DNA of 12,502 nt from a virus (Duplodnaviria; Heunggongvirae; Uroviricota; Caudoviricetes): IMG/VR virus record IMGVR_UViG_2541047430_000021, one strand, 5' to 3'. The notes under the pieces are model-generated. The model saw only the letters and a list, made by a program, of their open reading frames with translations, did no database searches and was not told the origin of the DNA. The position numbers and the translations under genes are program-made. Below, piece after piece: positions 1 through 12,470 of the stretch (position 1 is the first letter of the stretch; every line of letters starts with the position of its first letter).

Positions 1-387
1 GTGGGCCCGTCGTCCGTCTGGCACCATCCATCACAGCGATAAAGGCTCTCAGTATGTGTCACTGGCCTATACGGAGCGACTAGAAGAAGCCGGATTACTG
101 GCATCAACAGGGAGTACAGGCGACTCGTATGACAACGCGATGGCTGAGAGCATCAATGGTCTTTACAAAGCGGAGGTAATACACCGTAAGAGCTGGAAAA
201 ACCGTGCAGAAGTGGAACTGGCCACACTAACGTGGGTGGACTGGTATAACAATCGACGATTGCTGGGAAGGCTGGGCCATACTCCTCCGGCAGAAGCAGA
301 AAAAGCTTATTATGCTTCCATCGGAAACGATGATCTGGCAGCCTGAGTTCACAGATAAAGCACTCTCCAGGAAACCCGGGGCGGTTC
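1..387 (+). mobile_element. IS3-family insertion sequence, right-hand portion (continues left of the window); right end approximately 385-390
   Basis: Transposase ORF ends at 346. The minus-strand rusA-like frame loses RusA-like sequence (DLDNILKAPLD then unrelated EPPRVSWRVLYL) at about 385-390, placing the IS/prophage junction there. The exact terminal inverted repeat cannot be confirmed without the left end. Confidence 0.65.
2..346 (+). CDS. IS3-family transposase (OrfB, DDE/integrase core), C-terminal part; 5' partial
   Basis: The frame is open from the window edge; translation WARRPSGTIHHSDKGSQYVSLAYTERLEEAGLLASTGSTGDSYDNAMAESINGLYKAEV... carries the HSD(K/R)GSQY and DxYDNA(x)AES motifs typical of IS3-family OrfB. 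Stop TGA at 344-346. Confidence 0.85.
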   Translation, partial: WARRPSGTIHHSDKGSQYVSLAYTERLEEAGLLASTGSTGDSYDNAMAESINGLYKAEVIHRKSWKNRAEVELATLTWVDWYNNRRLLGRLGHTPPAEAEKAYYASIGNDDLAA

Positions 388-624
388 ATCCAGTGGTGCT
401 TTCAGGATATTGTCCAGGTCACGACGGCGCTTATCCGGTGGCTCTGCAATAATCTTTATCACCAGCCTTCCGGACAGGTTTAATTTCAGCCGCTGCTGGC
501 GAACAATAAGTGCCACATCCCGGCGATAACGCTCACCGGCTTTTGATACAAAATATGTGCAGCCACGACGTCGCCAGTAGGTGTTCACCGTCGGCGGGTA
601 AGGCAAAACAAACACTATACGCAT
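349..624 (-). pseudogene. rusA: rusA-like Holliday junction resolvase, 3'-truncated by the IS insertion
   Basis: ATG at 624-622 with GAGG SD 7 nt upstream. N-terminal ~79 aa (LPYPPTVNTYWRRRG..., PDKRRRDLDNILKAPLD) resemble E. coli RusA (LPWPPSNNRYYR..., PDRRRRDLDNLQKAAFD); the last ~12 codons are IS-derived. Confidence 0.75.
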
Positions 625-2133: not shown

Positions 2134-2289
2134 TTACTCCTCAGGTTCGTAAGCTGTGAAGACAGCGACCTCCGTCTGGCCGGTTCGGATTCGTACCTCG
2201 CAGAGGTCTTTCCTCGTTACCAGTGCCGTCACTATGACGGTAATACAGATGACGATCAGGGCGATTAACATCGCCTTTTGCTGCTTCAT
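2134..2289 (-). CDS. hok: Hok-family type I toxin (51 aa membrane peptide)
   Basis: Translation MKQQKAMLIALIVICITVIVTALVTRKDLCEVRIRTGQTEVAVFTAYEPEE is near-identical to HokD/RelF as I recall it. AGGAG SD 9 nt upstream of ATG at 2289-2287. An in-frame upstream ATG at 2346 with its own GAGG SD could be a mok-like start. Confidence 0.9.
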   Translation of the reverse strand: MKQQKAMLIALIVICITVIVTALVTRKDLCEVRIRTGQTEVAVFTAYEPEE

Positions 2290-2338
2290 AGCCTGCTTCT
2301 CCTTGCCTTTCGGCGCGTAAGAGGCTAACCTACATGTG

Positions 2339-2410
2339 TCTAGCATGAAATTGGCCTCAGATTAATGTTAGGCGTCTTGCAGGACGCGTAATGTTAACTG
2401 GGGCTTTTCT
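2339..2410 (+). ncRNA. putative Sok-like antisense RNA (hypothesis)
   Basis: Plus-strand region antisense to the SD and ATG at 2346-2362. Candidate promoter TTGCCT(2304-2309)-17 nt-TAACCT(2327-2332). Hairpins at 2372-2387 (GCGTC-TTGCAG-GACGC) and CCUCAG...CUGGGG, followed by a U-rich tail CUUUUCUCU. Boundaries are inferred, not measured. Confidence 0.3.
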
Positions 2411-2464
2411 CTGTCTGCCTTACGGTGGCATGCCCGAGGCAGACAGCCTCAAGCACCCGCAGCA

Positions 2465-3806: not shown

Positions 3807-4576
3807 TCACTTTTCCGATACAACACGGCGGGAAGAATCAGTAATCTGTCGAACAATATCCCGGTGCTTGTTCAGCTCCCGCAGCGCGGCGCAGACTCGC
3901 TCCCACTTCTGAACATCACTTTTCGCCCTGCGCAGCGCCAGGTTTGCCCTGCGCAGGGACGGAAAAATCAGCTCATCTGCTTGCGTTTCGGTAAACGATG
4001 GCAACGGCTGCACAATGTCCGCCACAGTTTCTGTTTTAATTTCTTCCTGTGTTGCGGCTTCCCGGACTGGTAACGCAGCACCTGCTGGCTGAGGAAAGGC
4101 CTTACCATCATTTTTCGTTACCGGCGCGGCTTTCGGATCTGCTGGTAAATTACCCCCCGACATGCAGTAACGAAATTTACCGTTCTGATTAACGCGTGCC
4201 AGCCGCCCCGTTGCGGTTACCACCGCCAGCGTGGAAGCAACCTTGCGAGTACTGACGCCGAACTTACCCGCCAGTTCCTCACACGTTTTAGCACCATCCT
4301 GACCGATAAACTCAACCATCATGTCTGCGGTAACTTTTGGAGCGACCTCTTCGGTTACCACATCCGGCGCTTCAGGTTGTAGTGCCTGCCCTTCGGTTAC
4401 CCCGGCTTCACCTTCGACAGCCAGAAACCAGGTGTGACCCGTTTTATCAACAACGCCATTTTTTTGAGTTCCCACAGTTCGTTAAGAACTTCTTCACGGC
4501 TGATATCAAGCCGCGCCGCCAGTTCAACAGAATTGGCTTTTCCCATCGCTTTCAGTGCATGCAATACAGTTTCCAT
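3807..4576 (-). pseudogene. tandem winged-helix protein gene split by a frameshift at an A7 homopolymer
   Basis: Frame A: ATG 4576 (GAGGT SD), [39 protein letters not shown]..., stop after 59 aa at 4397. Frame B (-1) continues [14 protein letters not shown]... to 3807. The junction is the A7 run (plus 4459-4465). The second domain (VEFIGQDGAKTCEELAGKFGVSTRKVASTL...NQNGKFRY) repeats the pattern of the first across the shift. Confidence 0.6.
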
Positions 4577-5348: not shown

Positions 5349-6311
5349 TCACCCCCTGAATCCCGGCGGTATTTCAGTGTCCGGTTCAGAAATGTGATTC
5401 ACGCAACGCTGCGCGGGCGAACGCCCCAGGCGGATAACCAGTTCATCCCATTTTTCCCGGAGTTTTGCCGGACTCATGATGTTTTTTACCCAGAACGAAT
5501 CCCGCTGGAGACGCCCAAACATTTCACAAATTTGTCTGTGAGTTCTGCCATCCAGCATCCGCATTGTCCGCACGTCATTGGCCCATGCAGTCCAGTTGGG
5601 TTCTTTCGGTCTCGTGATCTCGCCATCATCGCTGGCCGCCTGCTCGTAAAGACTCACGATTCGTCCCCAGATCCACTGTGCGCACACCAAATCTTCCTGA
5701 CTTCCCCACTGGCGTTTTTTCGCACTGAACACAACCGCGTCAGGGTGTCGGGTTAAAAAATTCTGTTCAGCCGTCTGCGGGTCCGGTTGCGAAGCGTCCG
5801 GACAAGAAGATCTTTTATCTGACGGATCAGGTTTTAATACTGACGGATCGGGGTCAATCATCGCCCCCCTAATCGGCAGTTTGTTATCAACAGTTGATCC
5901 ATCAAAATTTGACGGGTCAACCGTTGAGGGGGCAATATTTGACGGGTCAACTGTTAACGGGTCATTTTTTGCCGGGCTAATTTTTCTTTTCGGTTTATAT
6001 GACTCACGCGCCGCCGCAGCAGCTGCTTCGAGTTTTTCCACATTAAGCCGATAGATATTGCTTACATTACGCCCACCGACCTTACGCTCTTCCTTCGTCA
6101 GCCAGCCCTCTTTCGCCAGTTCTGCAATAGCCGATTTCACTGTGGATTCACTTCTTGCACCGATCTGACGCCGGATAGTTTCAATGGCAGGCCATGACAC
6201 GCCCTCGTCATTGCTGTAGTCTGCAAGACGGGCCATAACCGCCACCCTGGATAAGATCATGCCGGTGAAGGCGCACCCTTCCCAGACAAGACCATGAAGC
6301 TTGCTGCTCAT
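5349..6311 (-). CDS. replication initiator (O-like/YdaU-like) with N-terminal winged-helix domain
   Basis: N-terminus LHGLVWEGCAFTGMILSRVAVMARLADYSNDEGVSWPAIETIRRQIG...AIAELAKEGWL is an HTH typical of phage replication initiators. Lies immediately upstream of the DnaC-like gene. ATG at 6311; alternative GTG at 6326. Confidence 0.8.
   Translation of the reverse strand: MSSKLHGLVWEGCAFTGMILSRVAVMARLADYSNDEGVSWPAIETIRRQIGARSESTVKSAIAELAKEGWLTKEERKVGGRNVSNIYRLNVEKLEAAAAAARESYKPKRKISPAKNDPLTVDPSNIAPSTVDPSNFDGSTVDNKLPIRGAMIDPDPSVLKPDPSDKRSSCPDASQPDPQTAEQNFLTRHPDAVVFSAKKRQWGSQEDLVCAQWIWGRIVSLYEQAASDDGEITRPKEPNWTAWANDVRTMRMLDGRTHRQICEMFGRLQRDSFWVKNIMSPAKLREKWDELVIRLGRSPAQRCVNHISEPDTEIPPGFRG
5820..5965. 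repeat. iteron-like direct repeats (putative prophage origin) inside the initiator gene
   Basis: TGACGGATCAG (5820-5830), TGACGGATCGG (5841-5851), TGACGGGTCAA (5910-5920), TGACGGGTCAA (5940-5950), AACGGGTCAT (5956-5965); an AT-rich stretch follows at 5962-6000. They encode the repeated peptide DPLTVDPSNIAPSTVDPSNFDGSTVD. Confidence 0.55.
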
Positions 6312-6333
6312 AAAACCCCCGAACACCGTGCTT

Positions 6334-6759
6334 TTAGTGCATCACCACAGCATTCCCTGCCGGGCCGCCGCGATTCATCTGGTCATACAAAACAACCGCT
6401 GACGCAACAAAATCATCGACATCCTTCACCAGCCGATCCCTCCGTTCGACGATCTCACGGTAATATTCAGAACTGTGGCTGCGCATACGGGCCACCAGCA
6501 AAGGCGGCATCGCCTTTTCGATCGCCGGTAACAGAGCCTGCATTTTTTCAACAGCATCAGGGGTGTCTTTATCCAGCCAACGGAAAATTTTCTGGGTATT
6601 ACGGGCCAGGGCTTCCGGATGGCTGTCGTCATACAGTTCCGGGAACGTCATTCCCAGCTCGAAATACGCTTTGGTAATTTTCGCAGCCGGTACTTTTTCG
6701 CCGTCCGGATGCGCCCAGACATTCATCGCCATGCGGATGTGTTCATGCTTGATTTTCAT
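6334..6759 (-). CDS. YdaT-like (CII-like) prophage regulator
   Basis: Begins MKIKHEHI..., as I recall Rac YdaT does; 141 aa. ATG at 6759 overlaps the upstream stop (ATGA); GGAG SD. Confidence 0.75.
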   Translation of the reverse strand: MKIKHEHIRMAMNVWAHPDGEKVPAAKITKAYFELGMTFPELYDDSHPEALARNTQKIFRWLDKDTPDAVEKMQALLPAIEKAMPPLLVARMRSHSSEYYREIVERRDRLVKDVDDFVASAVVLYDQMNRGGPAGNAVVMH

Positions 6760-7058
6760 GAATCAACTCCATCAGATAAGCATGCACTACAATCACCTTC
6801 AGCATGAACTACATGTGTTTGCCCCAAACGAATGCCGCTCGCATACTCAGGCCAAATAAGCTCCCAATCATGGGGTCGTAGCTCCGCCCTACTTACTTGG
6901 CCTTCCGTCGCAGATTCGATCATAAGGGCGCGGGTTGGAGATATAGCTGTTCGTCCAGACGCCATTTGCGATAAGTAAGATGGCGATACACCAAGTCTGG
7001 CCGCGAATTTCTTAGCATCACCAACCCTTAATGATTTAATAAACTCTTTTAATGTCAT
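6756..7058 (-). CDS. Cro-like HTH protein (YdaS-like), first gene of the early-right operon
   Basis: Translation MTLKEFIKSLRVGDAKKFAARLGVSPSYLSQMASGRTAIS... is a Cro/CI-type HTH. GAGGAAGG SD before ATG at 7058. Divergent from the regulator gene. Confidence 0.8.
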   Translation of the reverse strand: MTLKEFIKSLRVGDAKKFAARLGVSPSYLSQMASGRTAISPTRALMIESATEGQVSRAELRPHDWELIWPEYASGIRLGQTHVVHAEGDCSACLSDGVDS

Positions 7059-7064
7059 ACCTTC

Positions 7065-7150
7065 CTCGGTTTAGTGTTTTTTTGCGAGTTTAGTGTTTAA
7101 TAAACCATTAAGTCAAGTATTTGCTTGTTTAGTGATTACTAAAGATAATT
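7065..7150. promoter_or_regulatory. OR-like divergent promoter/operator region
   Basis: Minus-strand promoter: -35 TTGACT (plus 7111-7116), -10 TAAACT (about 7087-7092). Plus-strand promoter: -35 TTGCTT (7121-7126), 17 nt, -10 GATAAT (7144-7149). GTTTAGTG motifs at 7069, 7088 and 7127; near-palindromes GTTTAATAAAC (7094-7104) and TTTAGTGATTACTAAA (7128-7143). Confidence 0.5.
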
Positions 7151-7155
7151 ACCAC

Positions 7156-7527
7156 ATGCAAAAAAAAGAAATTCGCCGTTTACGTCTCAAGGAGTGGTTT
7201 AAAGATAAAACTCTGCCACCCAAAGAGAAGAGCTACCTATCTCAACTAATGAGTGGGAGAGCCTCGTTTGGAGAAAAGGCTGCCAGAAGAATAGAGCAAA
7301 CATACGGGATGCCGGAAGGGTATCTGGATGCGGAATACGCAGAACAACCGGGGGGTTCTCCACCACATGCAGGGTTAACGTCTAATCAACTGGAATTATT
7401 GCAGATTTTTTCAGCCTTCCCTGAGGATGAGCAACGCCAGATAATCAGCGAGTTAAAGCAGAAAAAAGAATCAATGGAAGATCTCATAGCGAGATGGATT
7501 GCGGCGCAAAAATGCCGCCGCGCCTGA
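7156..7527 (+). CDS. CI-position HTH regulator (PaaR2-like), probably leaderless
   Basis: ATG at 7156 lies ~7 nt after the GATAAT -10 and has no SD. HTH-like segment KSYLSQLMSGRASFGEKAARRIEQTYGMPEGYLD. The ORF-track start at 7093 is a GTG inside the operator region. Confidence 0.65.
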   Translation: MQKKEIRRLRLKEWFKDKTLPPKEKSYLSQLMSGRASFGEKAARRIEQTYGMPEGYLDAEYAEQPGGSPPHAGLTSNQLELLQIFSAFPEDEQRQIISELKQKKESMEDLIARWIAAQKCRRA

Positions 7528-7547
7528 GTTATAAAACCGGAGGAAAC

Positions 7548-7739
7548 ATGAATAGAGCCCTTTCACCAATGGTTTCTGAATTTGAAACCATTGAACAAGA
7601 AAACAGTTACAACGAATGGCTGCGTGCGAAAGTAGCAACGAGCCTTGCAGATCCGCGCCCAGCAATTCCCCATGACGAAGTTGAGCGCAGAATGGCAGAA
7701 CGCTTTGCTAAGATGCGCAAGGAACGGAGCAAGCAGTAA
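7548..7739 (+). CDS. paaA2: ParE-associated antitoxin (PaaA2-like, 63 aa)
   Basis: GGAGG SD 5 nt before ATG 7548; 63-aa product directly upstream of the ParE toxin gene (1-nt gap). Length and arrangement match my recollection of the three-component paaR2-paaA2-parE2 system; the symbol is assigned from memory. Confidence 0.7.
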   Translation: MNRALSPMVSEFETIEQENSYNEWLRAKVATSLADPRPAIPHDEVERRMAERFAKMRKERSKQ

Positions 7740-7740
7740 A

Positions 7741-8019
7741 ATGTTACCCGTGTTATGGCTTGAAAGCGCAGATACCGACCTAGATGATATAACTAGTTAT
7801 ATTGCTCGTTTCGACATAGATGCGGCTGAACGCTTATGGCAGCGATTAAGGGGTTGTGTGCTGCCGTTATCCGAACATCCGTATTTATACCCACCAAGCG
7901 ACAGAGTACCTGGCTTGCGTGAGATTGTAGCCCACCCTAACTATATAATTCTATACCGCGTAACAACATCAAGCGTTGAAGTAGTAAACGTGATCCACGC
8001 AAGACGCCAGTTTCCCTAA
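7741..8019 (+). CDS. parE2: ParE/RelE-superfamily toxin (92 aa)
   Basis: Translation MLPVLWLESADTDLDDITSYIARFDIDAAERLWQRLRGCVLPLSEHPYLYPPSDRVPGLREIVAHPNYIILYRVTTSSVEVVNVIHARRQFP shows the ParE/RelE pattern (PG-RE-V--P-YIILYRV----V-V--V-HARR). Confidence 0.85.
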   Translation: MLPVLWLESADTDLDDITSYIARFDIDAAERLWQRLRGCVLPLSEHPYLYPPSDRVPGLREIVAHPNYIILYRVTTSSVEVVNVIHARRQFP

Positions 8020-8043
8020 CTTTCACTACCAATAGAAACATAA

Positions 8044-8101
8044 CAACCGCAACGACTTTATCAAAAGCGTTGTGTTTGTTATGTCCCGCGGTTTAGTTTT
8101 T
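8044..8101 (+). terminator. possible terminator of the regulator-TA operon (tIMM-like), weak
   Basis: Imperfect 13-bp stem AACAACCGCAACG / CGTTGTGTTTGTT (one mismatch, one G-U) with a 13-nt loop, followed by the T-rich GTTTAGTTTTTA. Confidence 0.3.
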
Positions 8102-8135
8102 ACTTGACTTAAGTTTAATGTTTATTAAACTAAAA
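8085..8135 (+). promoter_or_regulatory. OL/PL-like promoter-operator for the plus-strand early-left operon
   Basis: -35 TTGACT (8104-8109), 16 nt, -10 TAAACT (8126-8131). Palindrome GTTTATTAAAC (8120-8130) and GTTTAGT/GTTTAATG motifs (8090, 8113) echo those in the OR-like region. Confidence 0.45.
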
Positions 8136-8449
8136 ATACCAACCCACCCCGCCCCACAGAACGCAGGGAAATACTTCGAGTTACCCGGCAGTGGTCAGGG
8201 GTTAAGTAGCCAGCCCGAGGCGTATGAACATGACGGCAGGGTTCAACTTTAATAACTATGCAGCAGTTTTTTGTTCCGCTACCCCGGCGTTAAGGGGAAA
8301 CAGAGGGTTTCTCAGTGGGCGAAGTCAAACATCAGAATGGAAGGCATCCCGGGATCGGCAAAGAAGCAGCAATGGCGCTTTATATTGACATCAGCGCCAT
8401 TGCAGGACAGGTAAGAGTTATCAGAGCGGTAACTAAGCGGTATGCGCCT

Positions 8450-8961: not shown

Positions 8962-9317
8962 TAGCTAACCAACGAAGCTAAGGTTGGTAATTAAGGAGTT
9001 CTCCACGGGTGAGGTGGAGTGCGTGCGCCGGACACGGGTGAGCATACGGCACTGACAGTTTACTGAAAGGATATTTCCCTGAAAAGTCAGACCATAACGC
9101 GAAAGCGCACGGCGAGGTAGCTGGTTCATAGATAGCCTGTCGTTAAATTTTCGTCGACCGTGCGCTTCCGGTTGTGGCAATCCGCGAAATGGCGCGGCGG
9201 TAAGTATGGAGGGGTTATTCCTTCCCCCGTTGAGGACACCGGGTTGTCAGGTTGACCATACGCTTAAGTGACAACCCCGCTGCAACGCCCTCTGTTATCA
9301 ATTTTCTGGTGACGTTT

Positions 9318-9360
9318 GGCGGTATCAGTTTTACTCCGTGACTGCTCTGCCGCCCTTTTT
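9318..9360 (+). terminator. terminator-like hairpin plus T5 run (tL-like), weak
   Basis: GGCGG (9318-9322) ... CCGCC (9350-9354) with inner CAG/CTG pairing, followed by TTTTT (9356-9360). The loop is long, so efficiency is uncertain. Confidence 0.3.
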
Positions 9361-9529: not shown

Positions 9530-9718
9530 ATGGAAACGTTATTACCAAACGTTAATACGTCTGAAGGTTGTTTTGAAATTGGTGTCACTATCAGTAACCC
9601 TGTATTTACTGAAGATGCCATTAACAAGAGAAAACACGAACGGGAGCTATTAAATAAAATATGCATTCTTTCAATGCTGGCCCGTTTACGTCCGATACAA
9701 AAAGGATGCTGGCAATGA
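9530..9718 (+). CDS. hypothetical early-left protein (62 aa)
   Basis: GAGGA SD 7 nt before ATG 9530; stop TGA 9716-9718 overlaps the next start (ATGA). Confidence 0.5.
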   Translation: METLLPNVNTSEGCFEIGVTISNPVFTEDAINKRKHERELLNKICILSMLARLRPIQKGCWQ

Positions 9719-9998: not shown

Positions 9999-12470
9999 AT
10001 GAGTAAAGTCTTTATTTGCGCCGCCATTCCGGACGAACAGGCAATAAAGGAAGAAGGTGCCGTCGCTGTAGCCACTGCCATTGAAGCCGGTGATGAACGT
10101 CGCGCCCGCGCAAAATTTCACTGGCAATTCCTGGAACATTATCCGGCTGCTCAGGACTGCGCTTATAAATTTCTTGTTTGCGAGGATAAACCCGGTATAC
10201 CCCGCCCTGCCCTCGATTCCTGGGATGCTGAATATATGCAGGAAAACCGCTGGGATGAGGCGTCTGCTTCCTTTGTCCCGGTCGAGACTGAATCCGATCC
10301 GATGAACGTCACTTTTGACAACCTGGCCCCTGAAGTACAGAACGCTGTCATGGTTAAGTTCGACACATGTGAAAACATCACTGTTGATATGGTGATTAGC
10401 GCACAGGAATTGTTGCAGGAAGACATGGCAACATTCGACGGCCATATCGTTGAAGCGTTGATGAAAATGCCAGAAGTTAACGCTATGTATCCGGAGCTTA
10501 AGCTGCATGCCATCGGGTGGGTTAAGCATAAATGTAAGCCTGGTGCCAAATGGCCCGAAATTCAGGCAGAGATGCGCATCTGGAAAAAACGTCGCGAAGG
10601 TGAACGCAAGGAAGCCGGAAAATACACGTCTGTTGTTGATCTCGCCCGCGCCAGAGCCAATCAACAGCACACTGAAAATTCAACAGGAAAAATCAACCCG
10701 GTCATTGCTGCCATTCATCGCGAATACAAGCAGACATGGAAAACACTGGATGACGAACTGGCCTACGCTCTCTGGCCTGGTGATGTGGATGCCGGAAACA
10801 TTGACGGCAGCATCCATCGCTGGGCAAAAAATGAAGTTATCGACAACGGCCGCGAAGACTGGAAGCGTATCTCGGCATCAATGCGCAAACAGCCTGATGC
10901 CCTTCGCTACGACCGCCAGACTATTTTTGGCCTTGTCCGTGAACGTCCGATCGACATTCACAAAGACCCTGTGGCACTGAACAAATACATTACTGAATAC
11001 CTGACTACAAAGGGCGTGTTTGAAGATGAAGGAACAAATCAGAGCGCAACTGACACTCTCTCGTCGCCAGTACCAGAAACTGATGCAGTGGAAACGGCAA
11101 TTCCGGACAACGAAAAAACCGAATGCAAAGTGGAAGTCGAACCATCTGTAGAGCGTGAGGGGCCGTTCTACTTCCTCTTCACCGACAAGGATGGCGAAAA
11201 ATACGGTCGCGCAAACAAACTTTCTGGTCTGGATAAGGCGCTGGCTGCCGGGGCTACTGAAATCACAAAAGAAGAATATTTTGCCCGAAAAAATGGCACA
11301 TACACAGGCTTACCGCAAAATGCAAATACCGCACAAAATTCTGAACAACCAGAACCGGTAAAAGTTACCGCTGACGAAGTAAAGAAAATTATGCAGGCAG
11401 CCAATATCAGCCAGCCTGACGCCGAGGAACTGCTTGCAGTATCACGTGGTGAATTTGTTGAAGGGATTAGCGACCCGAATGATCCGAAATGGGTTAAGGG
11501 GATCCAGACCCGCGATTCTGTGAACCAGAACCAGCAAGAAACGGAACAGAACGACCAGAAAGCGGAACAAAACAGCCCAAATACGCAACAAAACGAGCCA
11601 GAAACGAAACAACCTGAACCAGTAGTGCAACAGGAACCGGAAAAGATCTGCACCGCCTGCGGTCAGAGCGGTGGCGGCAACTGCCCTGATTGTGGTGCGG
11701 TGATGGGTGACGCAACATACCAGGAAATATTCGATGGAGAGAATCAGCCTGAAGTTCAGGAAAATGATCCGGAGGAAATGGAAGGTACTGCACATCAGCA
11801 CAAGGAGAACACTGGCGGCAATCAGCATCATGCCAGCGATAGTGAAACTGGCGAGGCGTCAGATCCCTTAATTAAGGCGAACGGTCATCATAATCTCACA
11901 TCCACCAGCAGAGCGGGGATTCATCTGATGATCGATCTTGAAACCATGGGAAAAAATCCCGATGCCCCGATTATCTCAATAGGTGCAATATTTTTCGATC
12001 CGCAAACCGGAGATATGGGACCGGAATTTAGTAAGACTATCGATCTGGATACTGCTGGCGGAGTCATTGATCGGGACACCATGAAATGGTGGCTTAAACA
12101 ATCACGCGAAGCGCAATCTGCCATTATGACCGATGAAATCCCGTTAGATGATGCACTGTTACAATTGCGGGAATTTATCGACGAAAACTCCGGTGAATTT
12201 TTTGTTCATGTCTGGGGAAATGGAGCCAACTTCGACAACACGATTTTGCGCCGTTCATACGAACGGCAGGGGAGCCCCTGCCCGTGGCGTTACTACAACG
12301 ATCGCGATGTACGCACAATCGTTGAGCTGGGGAAAGCCATAGACTTCGATGCCAGAACGGCTATTCCATTCGAAGGTGAGCGCCATAATGCACTTGATGA
12401 CGCCCGTTACCAGGCAAAATACGTTTCAGCTATCTGGCAAAAACTGATCCCGAGTCAGGCTGATTTTTAA
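9999..12470 (+). CDS. prophage exonuclease (RecE position) with C-terminal DEDDh/DnaQ-like 3'-5' exonuclease domain
   Basis: 823-aa ORF with GAGG SD. C-terminus has the three DEDDh motifs: IDLETMG, VWGNGANFDNTIL, HNALDDARYQAKY. Internal CTACGQSGGGNCPDCG zinc-ribbon-like motif and a Q/E/N-rich low-complexity linker. Confidence 0.85.
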   Translation: MSKVFICAAIPDEQAIKEEGAVAVATAIEAGDERRARAKFHWQFLEHYPAAQDCAYKFLVCEDKPGIPRPALDSWDAEYMQENRWDEASASFVPVETESDPMNVTFDNLAPEVQNAVMVKFDTCENITVDMVISAQELLQEDMATFDGHIVEALMKMPEVNAMYPELKLHAIGWVKHKCKPGAKWPEIQAEMRIWKKRREGERKEAGKYTSVVDLARARANQQHTENSTGKINPVIAAIHREYKQTWKTLDDELAYALWPGDVDAGNIDGSIHRWAKNEVIDNGREDWKRISASMRKQPDALRYDRQTIFGLVRERPIDIHKDPVALNKYITEYLTTKGVFEDEGTNQSATDTLSSPVPETDAVETAIPDNEKTECKVEVEPSVEREGPFYFLFTDKDGEKYGRANKLSGLDKALAAGATEITKEEYFARKNGTYTGLPQNANTAQNSEQPEPVKVTADEVKKIMQAANISQPDAEELLAVSRGEFVEGISDPNDPKWVKGIQTRDSVNQNQQETEQNDQKAEQNSPNTQQNEPETKQPEPVVQQEPEKICTACGQSGGGNCPDCGAVMGDATYQEIFDGENQPEVQENDPEEMEGTAHQHKENTGGNQHHASDSETGEASDPLIKANGHHNLTSTSRAGIHLMIDLETMGKNPDAPIISIGAIFFDPQTGDMGPEFSKTIDLDTAGGVIDRDTMKWWLKQSREAQSAIMTDEIPLDDALLQLREFIDENSGEFFVHVWGNGANFDNTILRRSYERQGSPCPWRYYNDRDVRTIVELGKAIDFDARTAIPFEGERHNALDDARYQAKYVSAIWQKLIPSQADF

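Follow-up and report, generated by a model that had tools for sequence, protein, structure and literature searches.

Within the window, by which we mean the whole 12.5-kb stretch of DNA that was analysed, we identified three plus-strand genes that encode a helix-turn-helix regulator, a small antitoxin and a toxin (Table 1). Their positions were read from the list of open reading frames and from the sequence itself, and they bear out exactly the regulator-antitoxin-toxin order described in the first-pass annotation, with 20 nucleotides separating regulator and antitoxin (7528-7547) and a single nucleotide separating antitoxin and toxin (7740). Gene families were assigned with Pfam, and the identity of the proteins was established by comparison with PDB sequences.

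The annotated surroundings are those of a lambdoid prophage. On one side of the regulator lie Q, rusA, a DUF968 gene, hokD, O/P-like replication genes, ydaT and ydaS, from which the regulator gene diverges; on the other side the antitoxin and toxin genes are followed by ydfC, dicB, ydfD, an exonuclease gene, xis, an integrase gene and ynfA. The integrase gene, which lies beside ynfA, is a frameshifted pseudogene. The exonuclease gene is intact and an IS1203 element is inserted in rusA; relative to some O157 strains, the positions of IS1203 are the sole difference of the window outside the interval 6300-8300.

Table 1. Features of the locus, in window coordinates.
Feature	Position	Strand	Description
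ydaT	6334..6759	-	CII functional analogue; Pfam PF06254 YdaT_toxin, 2.8e-10
YdaT primary operator OM	6749..6766	.	TTGATTTTCATGAATCAA, across the overlap of the ydaS stop and the ydaT start
ydaS	6756..7058	-	Cro functional analogue (HTH_XRE), divergent from paaR2; Pfam PF15943 YdaS, 3.3e-12, and HTH_3, 6e-07
OR region	7059..7155	.	97 bp, ydaS-paaR2 intergenic; three exact GTTTAGTG repeats at 7069, 7088 and 7127
PR933P	7116 to 7087	-	TTGACT (starts 7116), 18-nt spacer, TAAACT (ends 7087); promoter scan
PRM933P	7121-7149	+	TTGCTT 7121-7126, 17-nt spacer, GATAAT 7144-7149, +1 = A of ATG 7156; read from sequence
paaR2	7156..7527	+	123-aa HTH repressor, CI analogue, leaderless mRNA; residues 1-66 identical to PDB 7NKV/8C3K
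paaA2	7548..7739	+	63-aa antitoxin without a DNA-binding domain; Pfam PF21217, PDB 3ZBE/5CW7
parE2	7741..8019	+	92-aa ParE-family toxin; Pfam PF05016, PDB 5CW7_B/5CZE
Hairpin	8038..8084	+	Inverted repeat between the parE2 stop and PL; 22-nt arms, 3-nt loop
OL-like operators	8086..8131	+	One-mismatch repeats GTTTAGTT at 8091 and GTTTAATG at 8113
PL933P	8104-8131	+	TTGACT 8104-8109, 16-nt spacer, TAAACT 8126-8131; points away from parE2 towards ydfC, DicF and dicB

The matching PDB entries of the regulator are named 'Phage repressor protein CI' and represent the N-terminal domain of PaaR2. A Pfam search with all 123 residues matched no family and revealed no S24 peptidase domain. The mechanical ORF list starts this gene further upstream, at a GTG at 7093; the start used here is the ATG at 7156 (MQKKE...), and N-terminal sequencing of PaaR2 has given MQKKE, with a leaderless mRNA mapped by 5' RACE (PMC8630535). 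The GATAAT hexamer of PRM933P ends 6 nucleotides before this ATG, and no Shine-Dalgarno sequence can be read there. PaaR2 occupies the place of lambda cI, and a missing peptidase motif as well as insensitivity to mitomycin C have been reported for it (PMC8630535). It works like CI, yet on these grounds, together with the missing S24 domain and Pfam match, it is not a member of the CI family.

Over residues 2-63, the antitoxin has the same sequence as PaaA2 in 3ZBE and 5CW7. Its sole Pfam match is the PaaA2 family (1e-19, a 33-position model), and no ParD, RelB or RHH family was matched at E<=0.01. The published account of PaaA2 likewise gives it no DNA-binding domain (PMC8630535). A GGAGG sequence at 7540-7544 lies 5 nucleotides 5' of its ATG. 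The toxin is identical over 92 of 92 residues to ParE2 in 5CW7_B and 5CZE (E 7e-60), matches the ParE_toxin family above the cut-off (1.9e-16), and has weak PDB matches to 3KXE, 6X0A, 5CEG and 8C24. With its ATG one nucleotide past the paaA2 stop, parE2 may be translationally coupled to paaA2. The first-pass annotation had called the pair ParD/ParE-type; the ParE half of this label holds, and the ParD half does not, as the antitoxin matches the PaaA2 family only and has no DNA-binding domain. It had also named PaaR2, PaaA2 and ParE2 as proteins for comparison, and these turned out to be the proteins themselves (toxin, 5CW7_B; antitoxin, 3ZBE; regulator residues 1-66, 7NKV).

The DNA from 6300 to 8300 is 100% identical to that of many E. 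coli O157:H7 chromosomes, and the window as a whole is colinear and 99.9% identical with strains such as F7349. Because of this DNA identity and of the protein identity to solved structures, we identify the region, with a probability of about 96%, as paaR2-paaA2-parE2, the operon that the cryptic lambdoid prophage CP-933P (Sp12) carries in E. coli O157:H7 and in which PaaR2 is a CI-like repressor that controls the toxin-antitoxin (TA) pair. We found no observation within the window that contradicts this explanation. The three-component PaaR-PaaA-ParE family has this locus as its type example. The literature of 2010-2023 already contains the structures of the three proteins, the operators and promoters of the locus and the control of a TA pair by a CI analogue in the rexAB slot; it includes Hallez et al. 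(2010 Mol Microbiol 76:719), Sterckx et al. (2016 JMB) and Jurenas et al. (2021 mBio, PMC8630535).

Hallez et al. (2010) defined paaR2-paaA2-parE2 as a three-component TA operon with PaaR2 as its transcriptional repressor, and published expression studies place the three genes in one operon. For sequences identical to those in the window, the work of Hallez et al. covers the toxicity of ParE2, its neutralisation by PaaA2, the degradation of PaaA2 by ClpAP/ClpXP and post-segregational killing that depends on these proteases and through which the locus stabilises plasmids. ParE2 is described there as co-localising with the nucleoid and inducing the SOS response. Public annotation of the locus is poor: in RefSeq, PaaR2 goes by 'hypothetical protein', YdaT by 'toxin YdaT family protein' and PaaA2 by 'RelB family antitoxin'.

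The intergenic region between ydaS and paaR2 contains all three exact copies of GTTTAGTG in the 12.5-kb window, and these fall within 66 bp. When one mismatch is allowed, the same word occurs 12 times window-wide against 8.65 expected, which is no excess over chance. The operator signal comes not from the number of 8-mers but from the clustering of the exact copies and from the longer blocks that the two regions share. Only one-mismatch variants of GTTTAGTG are found 3' of parE2. The two regions nonetheless align across about 55 columns, share repeat families of 21-24 nucleotides and include a perfect 12-nucleotide inverted match (7108-7119 with 8101-8112). The proposal of the first-pass annotation that the cassette sits between OR-like and OL-like regions is borne out by the exact repeats upstream and by the one-mismatch copies and alignment downstream. 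The published description of the OR array is of four inverted repeats and three pseudosymmetric operators, with the repeat consensus GTTTAGTAA (PMC8630535). In EMSA and DNase I experiments on the 97-bp region, the protected stretch measures about 78 bp with PaaR2 and about 65 bp with YdaS (PMC8630535).

The OR region carries two divergent promoters. The hexamers of PRM933P are consistent with the start mapped by 5' RACE in PMC8630535, and its sequence fits a weak, activatable, leaderless promoter. PaaR2 and YdaS each repress both PRM933P and PR933P, PRM933P is activated at low PaaR2, and the region is bistable; the published work includes gfp reporters for PRM, PR, PL and PRE (PMC8630535). For YdaS, EMSA, footprinting and reporter data have been published (PMC8630535). 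YdaT is a regulator rather than a toxin (PMC8630535, PMC9986795), and it activates the PRE-type promoter PRE933P, an alternative start for transcription of paaR2-paaA2-parE2 (PMC8630535). The YdaT site TTGATTN6AATCAA, mapped by DNase I footprinting (Prolic-Kalinsek et al. 2023, PMC9986795), has one exact match in the window, the OM site of Table 1.

The hexamers of PL933P, found by promoter scan, are identical to those of PR933P. This promoter has been described beyond parE2 with the same hexamers and with operators OL1-3, and in reporter assays both PaaR2 and YdaS repress it about 100-fold (PMC8630535). The first-pass annotation would have been refuted by a regulator that failed to bind either flanking region; published work shows binding of PaaR2 at OR by EMSA and DNase I and its repression of PL in reporter assays (PMC8630535), so that this does not refute it. 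Between the parE2 stop and PL933P lies an inverted repeat whose RNA is predicted to fold with -24 kcal/mol (z = -4.8), a stability equalled by none of 200 shuffled sequences. A plus-strand scan found no canonical intrinsic terminator 3' of parE2, and this hairpin has no T-tract. It probably marks the end of the operon on its 3' side or serves there as a terminator element. At the matching position, two heteroimmune relatives of the locus, in strains A8 and 23CRST049, have canonical terminators with a GC stem and a T-run.

The explanation that we favour follows the published mechanism. PaaR2 is made from a leaderless mRNA that starts at PRM933P and binds repeated candidate operators of the GTTTAGT(G/A) type within the 97 bp of OR. 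There it represses PR933P, and with it ydaS-ydaT, and activates or represses its own promoter according to dose. It also represses PL933P directly 3' of parE2, and octameric PaaR2 may loop OR to OL. Cro-like YdaS competes for the operators of PaaR2, which yields a bistable switch. CII-like YdaT, bound at the ydaS/ydaT junction, turns on PRE933P and opens a second route to transcription of paaR2-paaA2-parE2. PaaA2 and ParE2 are co-transcribed behind the repressor, in the position of lambda rexA-rexB, and because PaaA2 has no DNA-binding domain, the transcriptional control of the TA pair lies wholly with the immunity regulators of the prophage. PaaA2 is degraded by ClpAP/ClpXP. Loss of the locus frees the stable ParE2, which associates with the nucleoid and induces the SOS response. 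The module is therefore addictive and would stabilise the immunity region or the prophage. For proteins identical to those encoded here, with the match of PaaR2 verified over residues 1-66, the literature provides experimental evidence of DNA binding, repression, leaderless translation, bistability and post-segregational killing, as well as the three structures.

The central suggestion of the first-pass annotation, that the immunity regulator and the TA regulator may be one protein, had already been confirmed by the experiments of Jurenas et al. (2021, PMC8630535), and its placement of the cassette in the cI-rexAB slot is the same description that has been published for this locus (PMC8630535, PMC9986795). 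Its further idea that toxin expression is tied to lysogeny is partly right. Transcription of the TA genes goes on in either state of the switch, with neither SOS induction nor ParE2 activity seen, and it did not release active toxin (PMC8630535). That a reading of the raw sequence recovered the correct, rather subtle published interpretation makes the case a useful calibration point.

Among 5,426 complete E. coli genomes, paaR2 is found at a coverage of at least 80% in 608 and paaA2-parE2 in 686, or about 11-13%, and the cassette is conserved in heteroimmune prophages as well. O157 genomes have a second paaA-parE place, and a published homologue, paaR1-paaA1-parE1, sits in CP-933M (PMC8630535). 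The cassette also occurs, 98.5% identical, in the GenBank record of Escherichia phage Evi (LR597642), whose ParE2 equals that of the window and whose PaaR2 has 2 changed residues out of 123 (about 98% identity). The Evi record leaves parE2 unannotated.

The five-gene layout, ydaT-ydaS divergent from an HTH regulator followed by PaaA and ParE, is kept in the heteroimmune relatives of strains A8 and 23CRST049. Compared with the window, identity in these two loci is 65-67% for PaaA, 66-68% for ParE, 79-87% for YdaT and 57-64% for the last 47 residues of the regulator, and only 15-17% for the N-terminal, DNA-binding part of the regulator. The C-terminal 18 residues of PaaA also differ. The operator words are AAAAACTGT and ACAGTTTTT in strain A8 and ACTTTTAAAGT in strain 23CRST049. 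Each OR region has 8-15 8-mers in common with the post-parE region of its own locus, compared with 0-4 in common with that of another locus. This sharing of 8-mers and the divergence of the regulator N-terminal domain indicate that the specificity of the regulator changes in step with both operator sets, while the TA pair that they surround is conserved. To judge from these sequences, such a joint change is what would be expected of an immunity repressor that doubles as the TA regulator.

Two other readings of the regulator and antitoxin can be weighed against this evidence. PaaR2 might be a dedicated TA regulator, the DNA-binding half of a 'split antitoxin' rather than a prophage repressor, with its adjacency to ydaS-ydaT incidental. 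The authors of PMC8630535 raise this idea in their discussion, and it would agree with a PaaA2 that has no DNA-binding domain and with a PaaR2 that has no S24 autocleavage domain like that of CI. However, neither PR933P nor the distal PL933P is a TA promoter, yet PaaR2 represses both, and it competes with Cro-like YdaS in a bistable switch (PMC8630535); moreover, the heteroimmune relatives exchange the DNA-binding domain and the OR/OL words together while the TA pair is conserved. We regard this reading as very improbable, and the published PL and PR reporter data largely refute it (PMC8630535). Even less credence can be given to a canonical two-gene ParD-ParE system that is autoregulated by its own antitoxin and preceded by an unrelated gene. 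The RefSeq names 'RelB family antitoxin' and 'hypothetical protein' would suit such a system, but Pfam assigns the antitoxin to PaaA2 alone, and the published expression studies place all three genes in one operon. The Pfam result and the published data refute this reading, and we rejected a canonical ParD antitoxin.

A different question is what the TA pair is for. Its main function could be anti-phage, in superinfection exclusion or abortive infection as a functional replacement of rexAB, with ParE2 set free once an incoming phage stops the transcription of host or prophage or brings about the degradation of PaaA2. The rexAB position of the pair points this way, as do the conservation of the cassette in E. 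coli (about 11-13% of complete genomes) and among heteroimmune prophages and the protease-lability of PaaA2, by which a shut-off of transcription would free the toxin. TA systems in general are increasingly linked to phage defence (PMC10440598). Against this, the PADLOC defence models gave 0 matches for PaaR2, PaaA2 and ParE2, and Jurenas et al. propose a role in stabilisation and in limiting rearrangements and demonstrated post-segregational killing; the whole region stabilises a mini-F plasmid (PMC8630535). We found no phage-challenge test of PaaA2-ParE2 in the literature on ParE2 and phage defence, where PMC11980606 mentions ParE2 just in a family table. A mainly anti-phage function appears unlikely to us, although the two roles are not mutually exclusive. 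We suggest, quite tentatively and as a rather doubtful possibility, that in addition to its role in addiction the pair may serve as a rexAB-like guard against incoming, heteroimmune lambdoid phage. Shut-off of transcription or replacement of the immunity region would then stop PaaA2 synthesis and free ParE2, and the infection would be aborted or the recombinants killed. If so, the pairing of the TA genes with many repressor and operator specificities, as well as their occurrence in Evi, would reflect selection for exclusion and not for retention alone.

A PaaR2-controlled operon in which the immunity repressor also governs the TA pair is best compared with the immunity region of lambda (PL/OL - rexB - rexA - cI - PRM/OR/PR - cro - cII), which it resembles in architecture and logic. 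Both have a repressor made from a leaderless mRNA, which for paaR2 is known from published 5' RACE and N-terminal sequencing (PMC8630535), a divergent Cro-like gene with a multi-operator region between the two, two accessory genes after the repressor followed by a second set of operators and promoter, and a CII-like activator with a PRE-type promoter. The lambdoid traits observed in the window itself are the divergent repressor and Cro-like genes, repeated operators over two promoters and the second operator/promoter set. According to an explicit statement in PMC9986795, paaA2-parE2 stand in for rexA/rexB and PaaR2 for CI. By Pfam, the three proteins show no homology to CI or RexAB. In contrast to lambda CI, PaaR2 lacks the S24 peptidase domain, and it is reportedly unresponsive to mitomycin C; repeats of the GTTTAGTAA type serve as operators where lambda has three 17-bp palindromes, and a ParE TA pair takes the place of RexAB as accessory cargo.

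The second comparison is with canonical ParD-ParE systems, such as RK2 ParDE, Caulobacter ParDE1 (3KXE) and Vibrio ParDE2. A toxin of ParE fold and family (PF05016) and stabilisation by post-segregational killing are common to both. Unlike the antitoxins of those systems, PaaA2 has no RHH domain and does not autoregulate, and regulation falls to a third protein. A ParE-family toxin, a PaaA-type antitoxin and an HTH regulator gene placed first in the operon were all found here, and these are the traits of the PaaR-PaaA-ParE family.

The paaR2-paaA2-parE2 cassette is also present in a deposited 40-kb phage genome, that of Escherichia phage Evi (LR597642, 6117-6980). The Evi cassette is 98.5% identical to that of the window at the DNA level, with ParE2 100% identical and PaaR2 differing at 2 of 123 residues. 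In the Evi record, no annotation is given for the parE2 ORF.

Other E. coli prophages carry heteroimmune versions of the cassette, which we identified in strains A8 (locus L003, 2574-3479) and 23CRST049 (locus L004, 2573-3473). PaaA and ParE of both loci are approximately 66% identical to those of the window, and the C-terminal 18 residues of PaaA are replaced. The regulators retain the C-terminal 47 residues, whereas their N-terminal domains are unrelated, and each locus has its own particular operator words, which are repeated on both flanks of the operon. Between the parE2 stop codon and the rightward promoter PL933P, the window contains a strong hairpin (z = -4.8) without a T-run. The heteroimmune relatives carry ordinary terminators, consisting of a GC-rich stem followed by a T-run, at this position.

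Annotation of window positions 6334-8019 in the RefSeq genomes holding this locus (L001 and L005) trails published knowledge. PaaR2 is listed as 'hypothetical protein' and PaaA2 as either 'RelB family antitoxin' or 'hypothetical protein'. YdaT is named 'toxin YdaT family protein', although it has been demonstrated to be a CII-like regulator and no toxin (PMC8630535).

The same prophage also holds a second toxin-antitoxin module (2134-2458, minus strand) of a different type from paaA2-parE2, which consists of a Hok toxin and a sok RNA. Coordinates of this and the other features of the window are as follows.

Features of the window outside the paaR2-paaA2-parE2 cassette
Feature	Position	Strand	Details
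3' end of IS1203/IS629	1-348		IS3 family; transposase C-terminus, ORF 56-346
rusA	349-624	-	truncated
hokD-type Hok toxin ORF	2134-2346	-	the hokD annotation covers its 3' 156 nt
sok antisense RNA	2284-2458		full-length Rfam match, 116.9 bits
DUF1627 gene	3807-4576	-	overlapping ORFs 3807-4475 and 4397-4576
Hairpin after parE2	8038-8084		22-bp arms
DicF sRNA	9304-9355	+	full-length, Rfam RF00039, 76.7 bits
dicB and ydfD	9530-9718	+	
Exonuclease gene	9999-12470		intact

The window begins within an IS3-family element whose insertion in rusA truncated the RusA gene. In O157 strains TR01, EC4115 and TW14359, rusA is intact and the exonuclease gene is interrupted by the same element instead. The DUF1627 gene is broken into two ORFs, and RefSeq lists it for O157 strains as a pseudogene with a frameshift. 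This is consistent with the cryptic prophage being in decay.

The ORFs immediately 3' of PL could not be assigned a function in the published work on this system (PMC8630535). Further downstream we found DicF, followed by dicB and ydfD. Because all three lie downstream of PL933P and on the same strand, this promoter, which is controlled by PaaR2 and YdaS, may drive the DicF-DicB cell-division inhibitors. Such an arrangement would resemble that of the Qin prophage.
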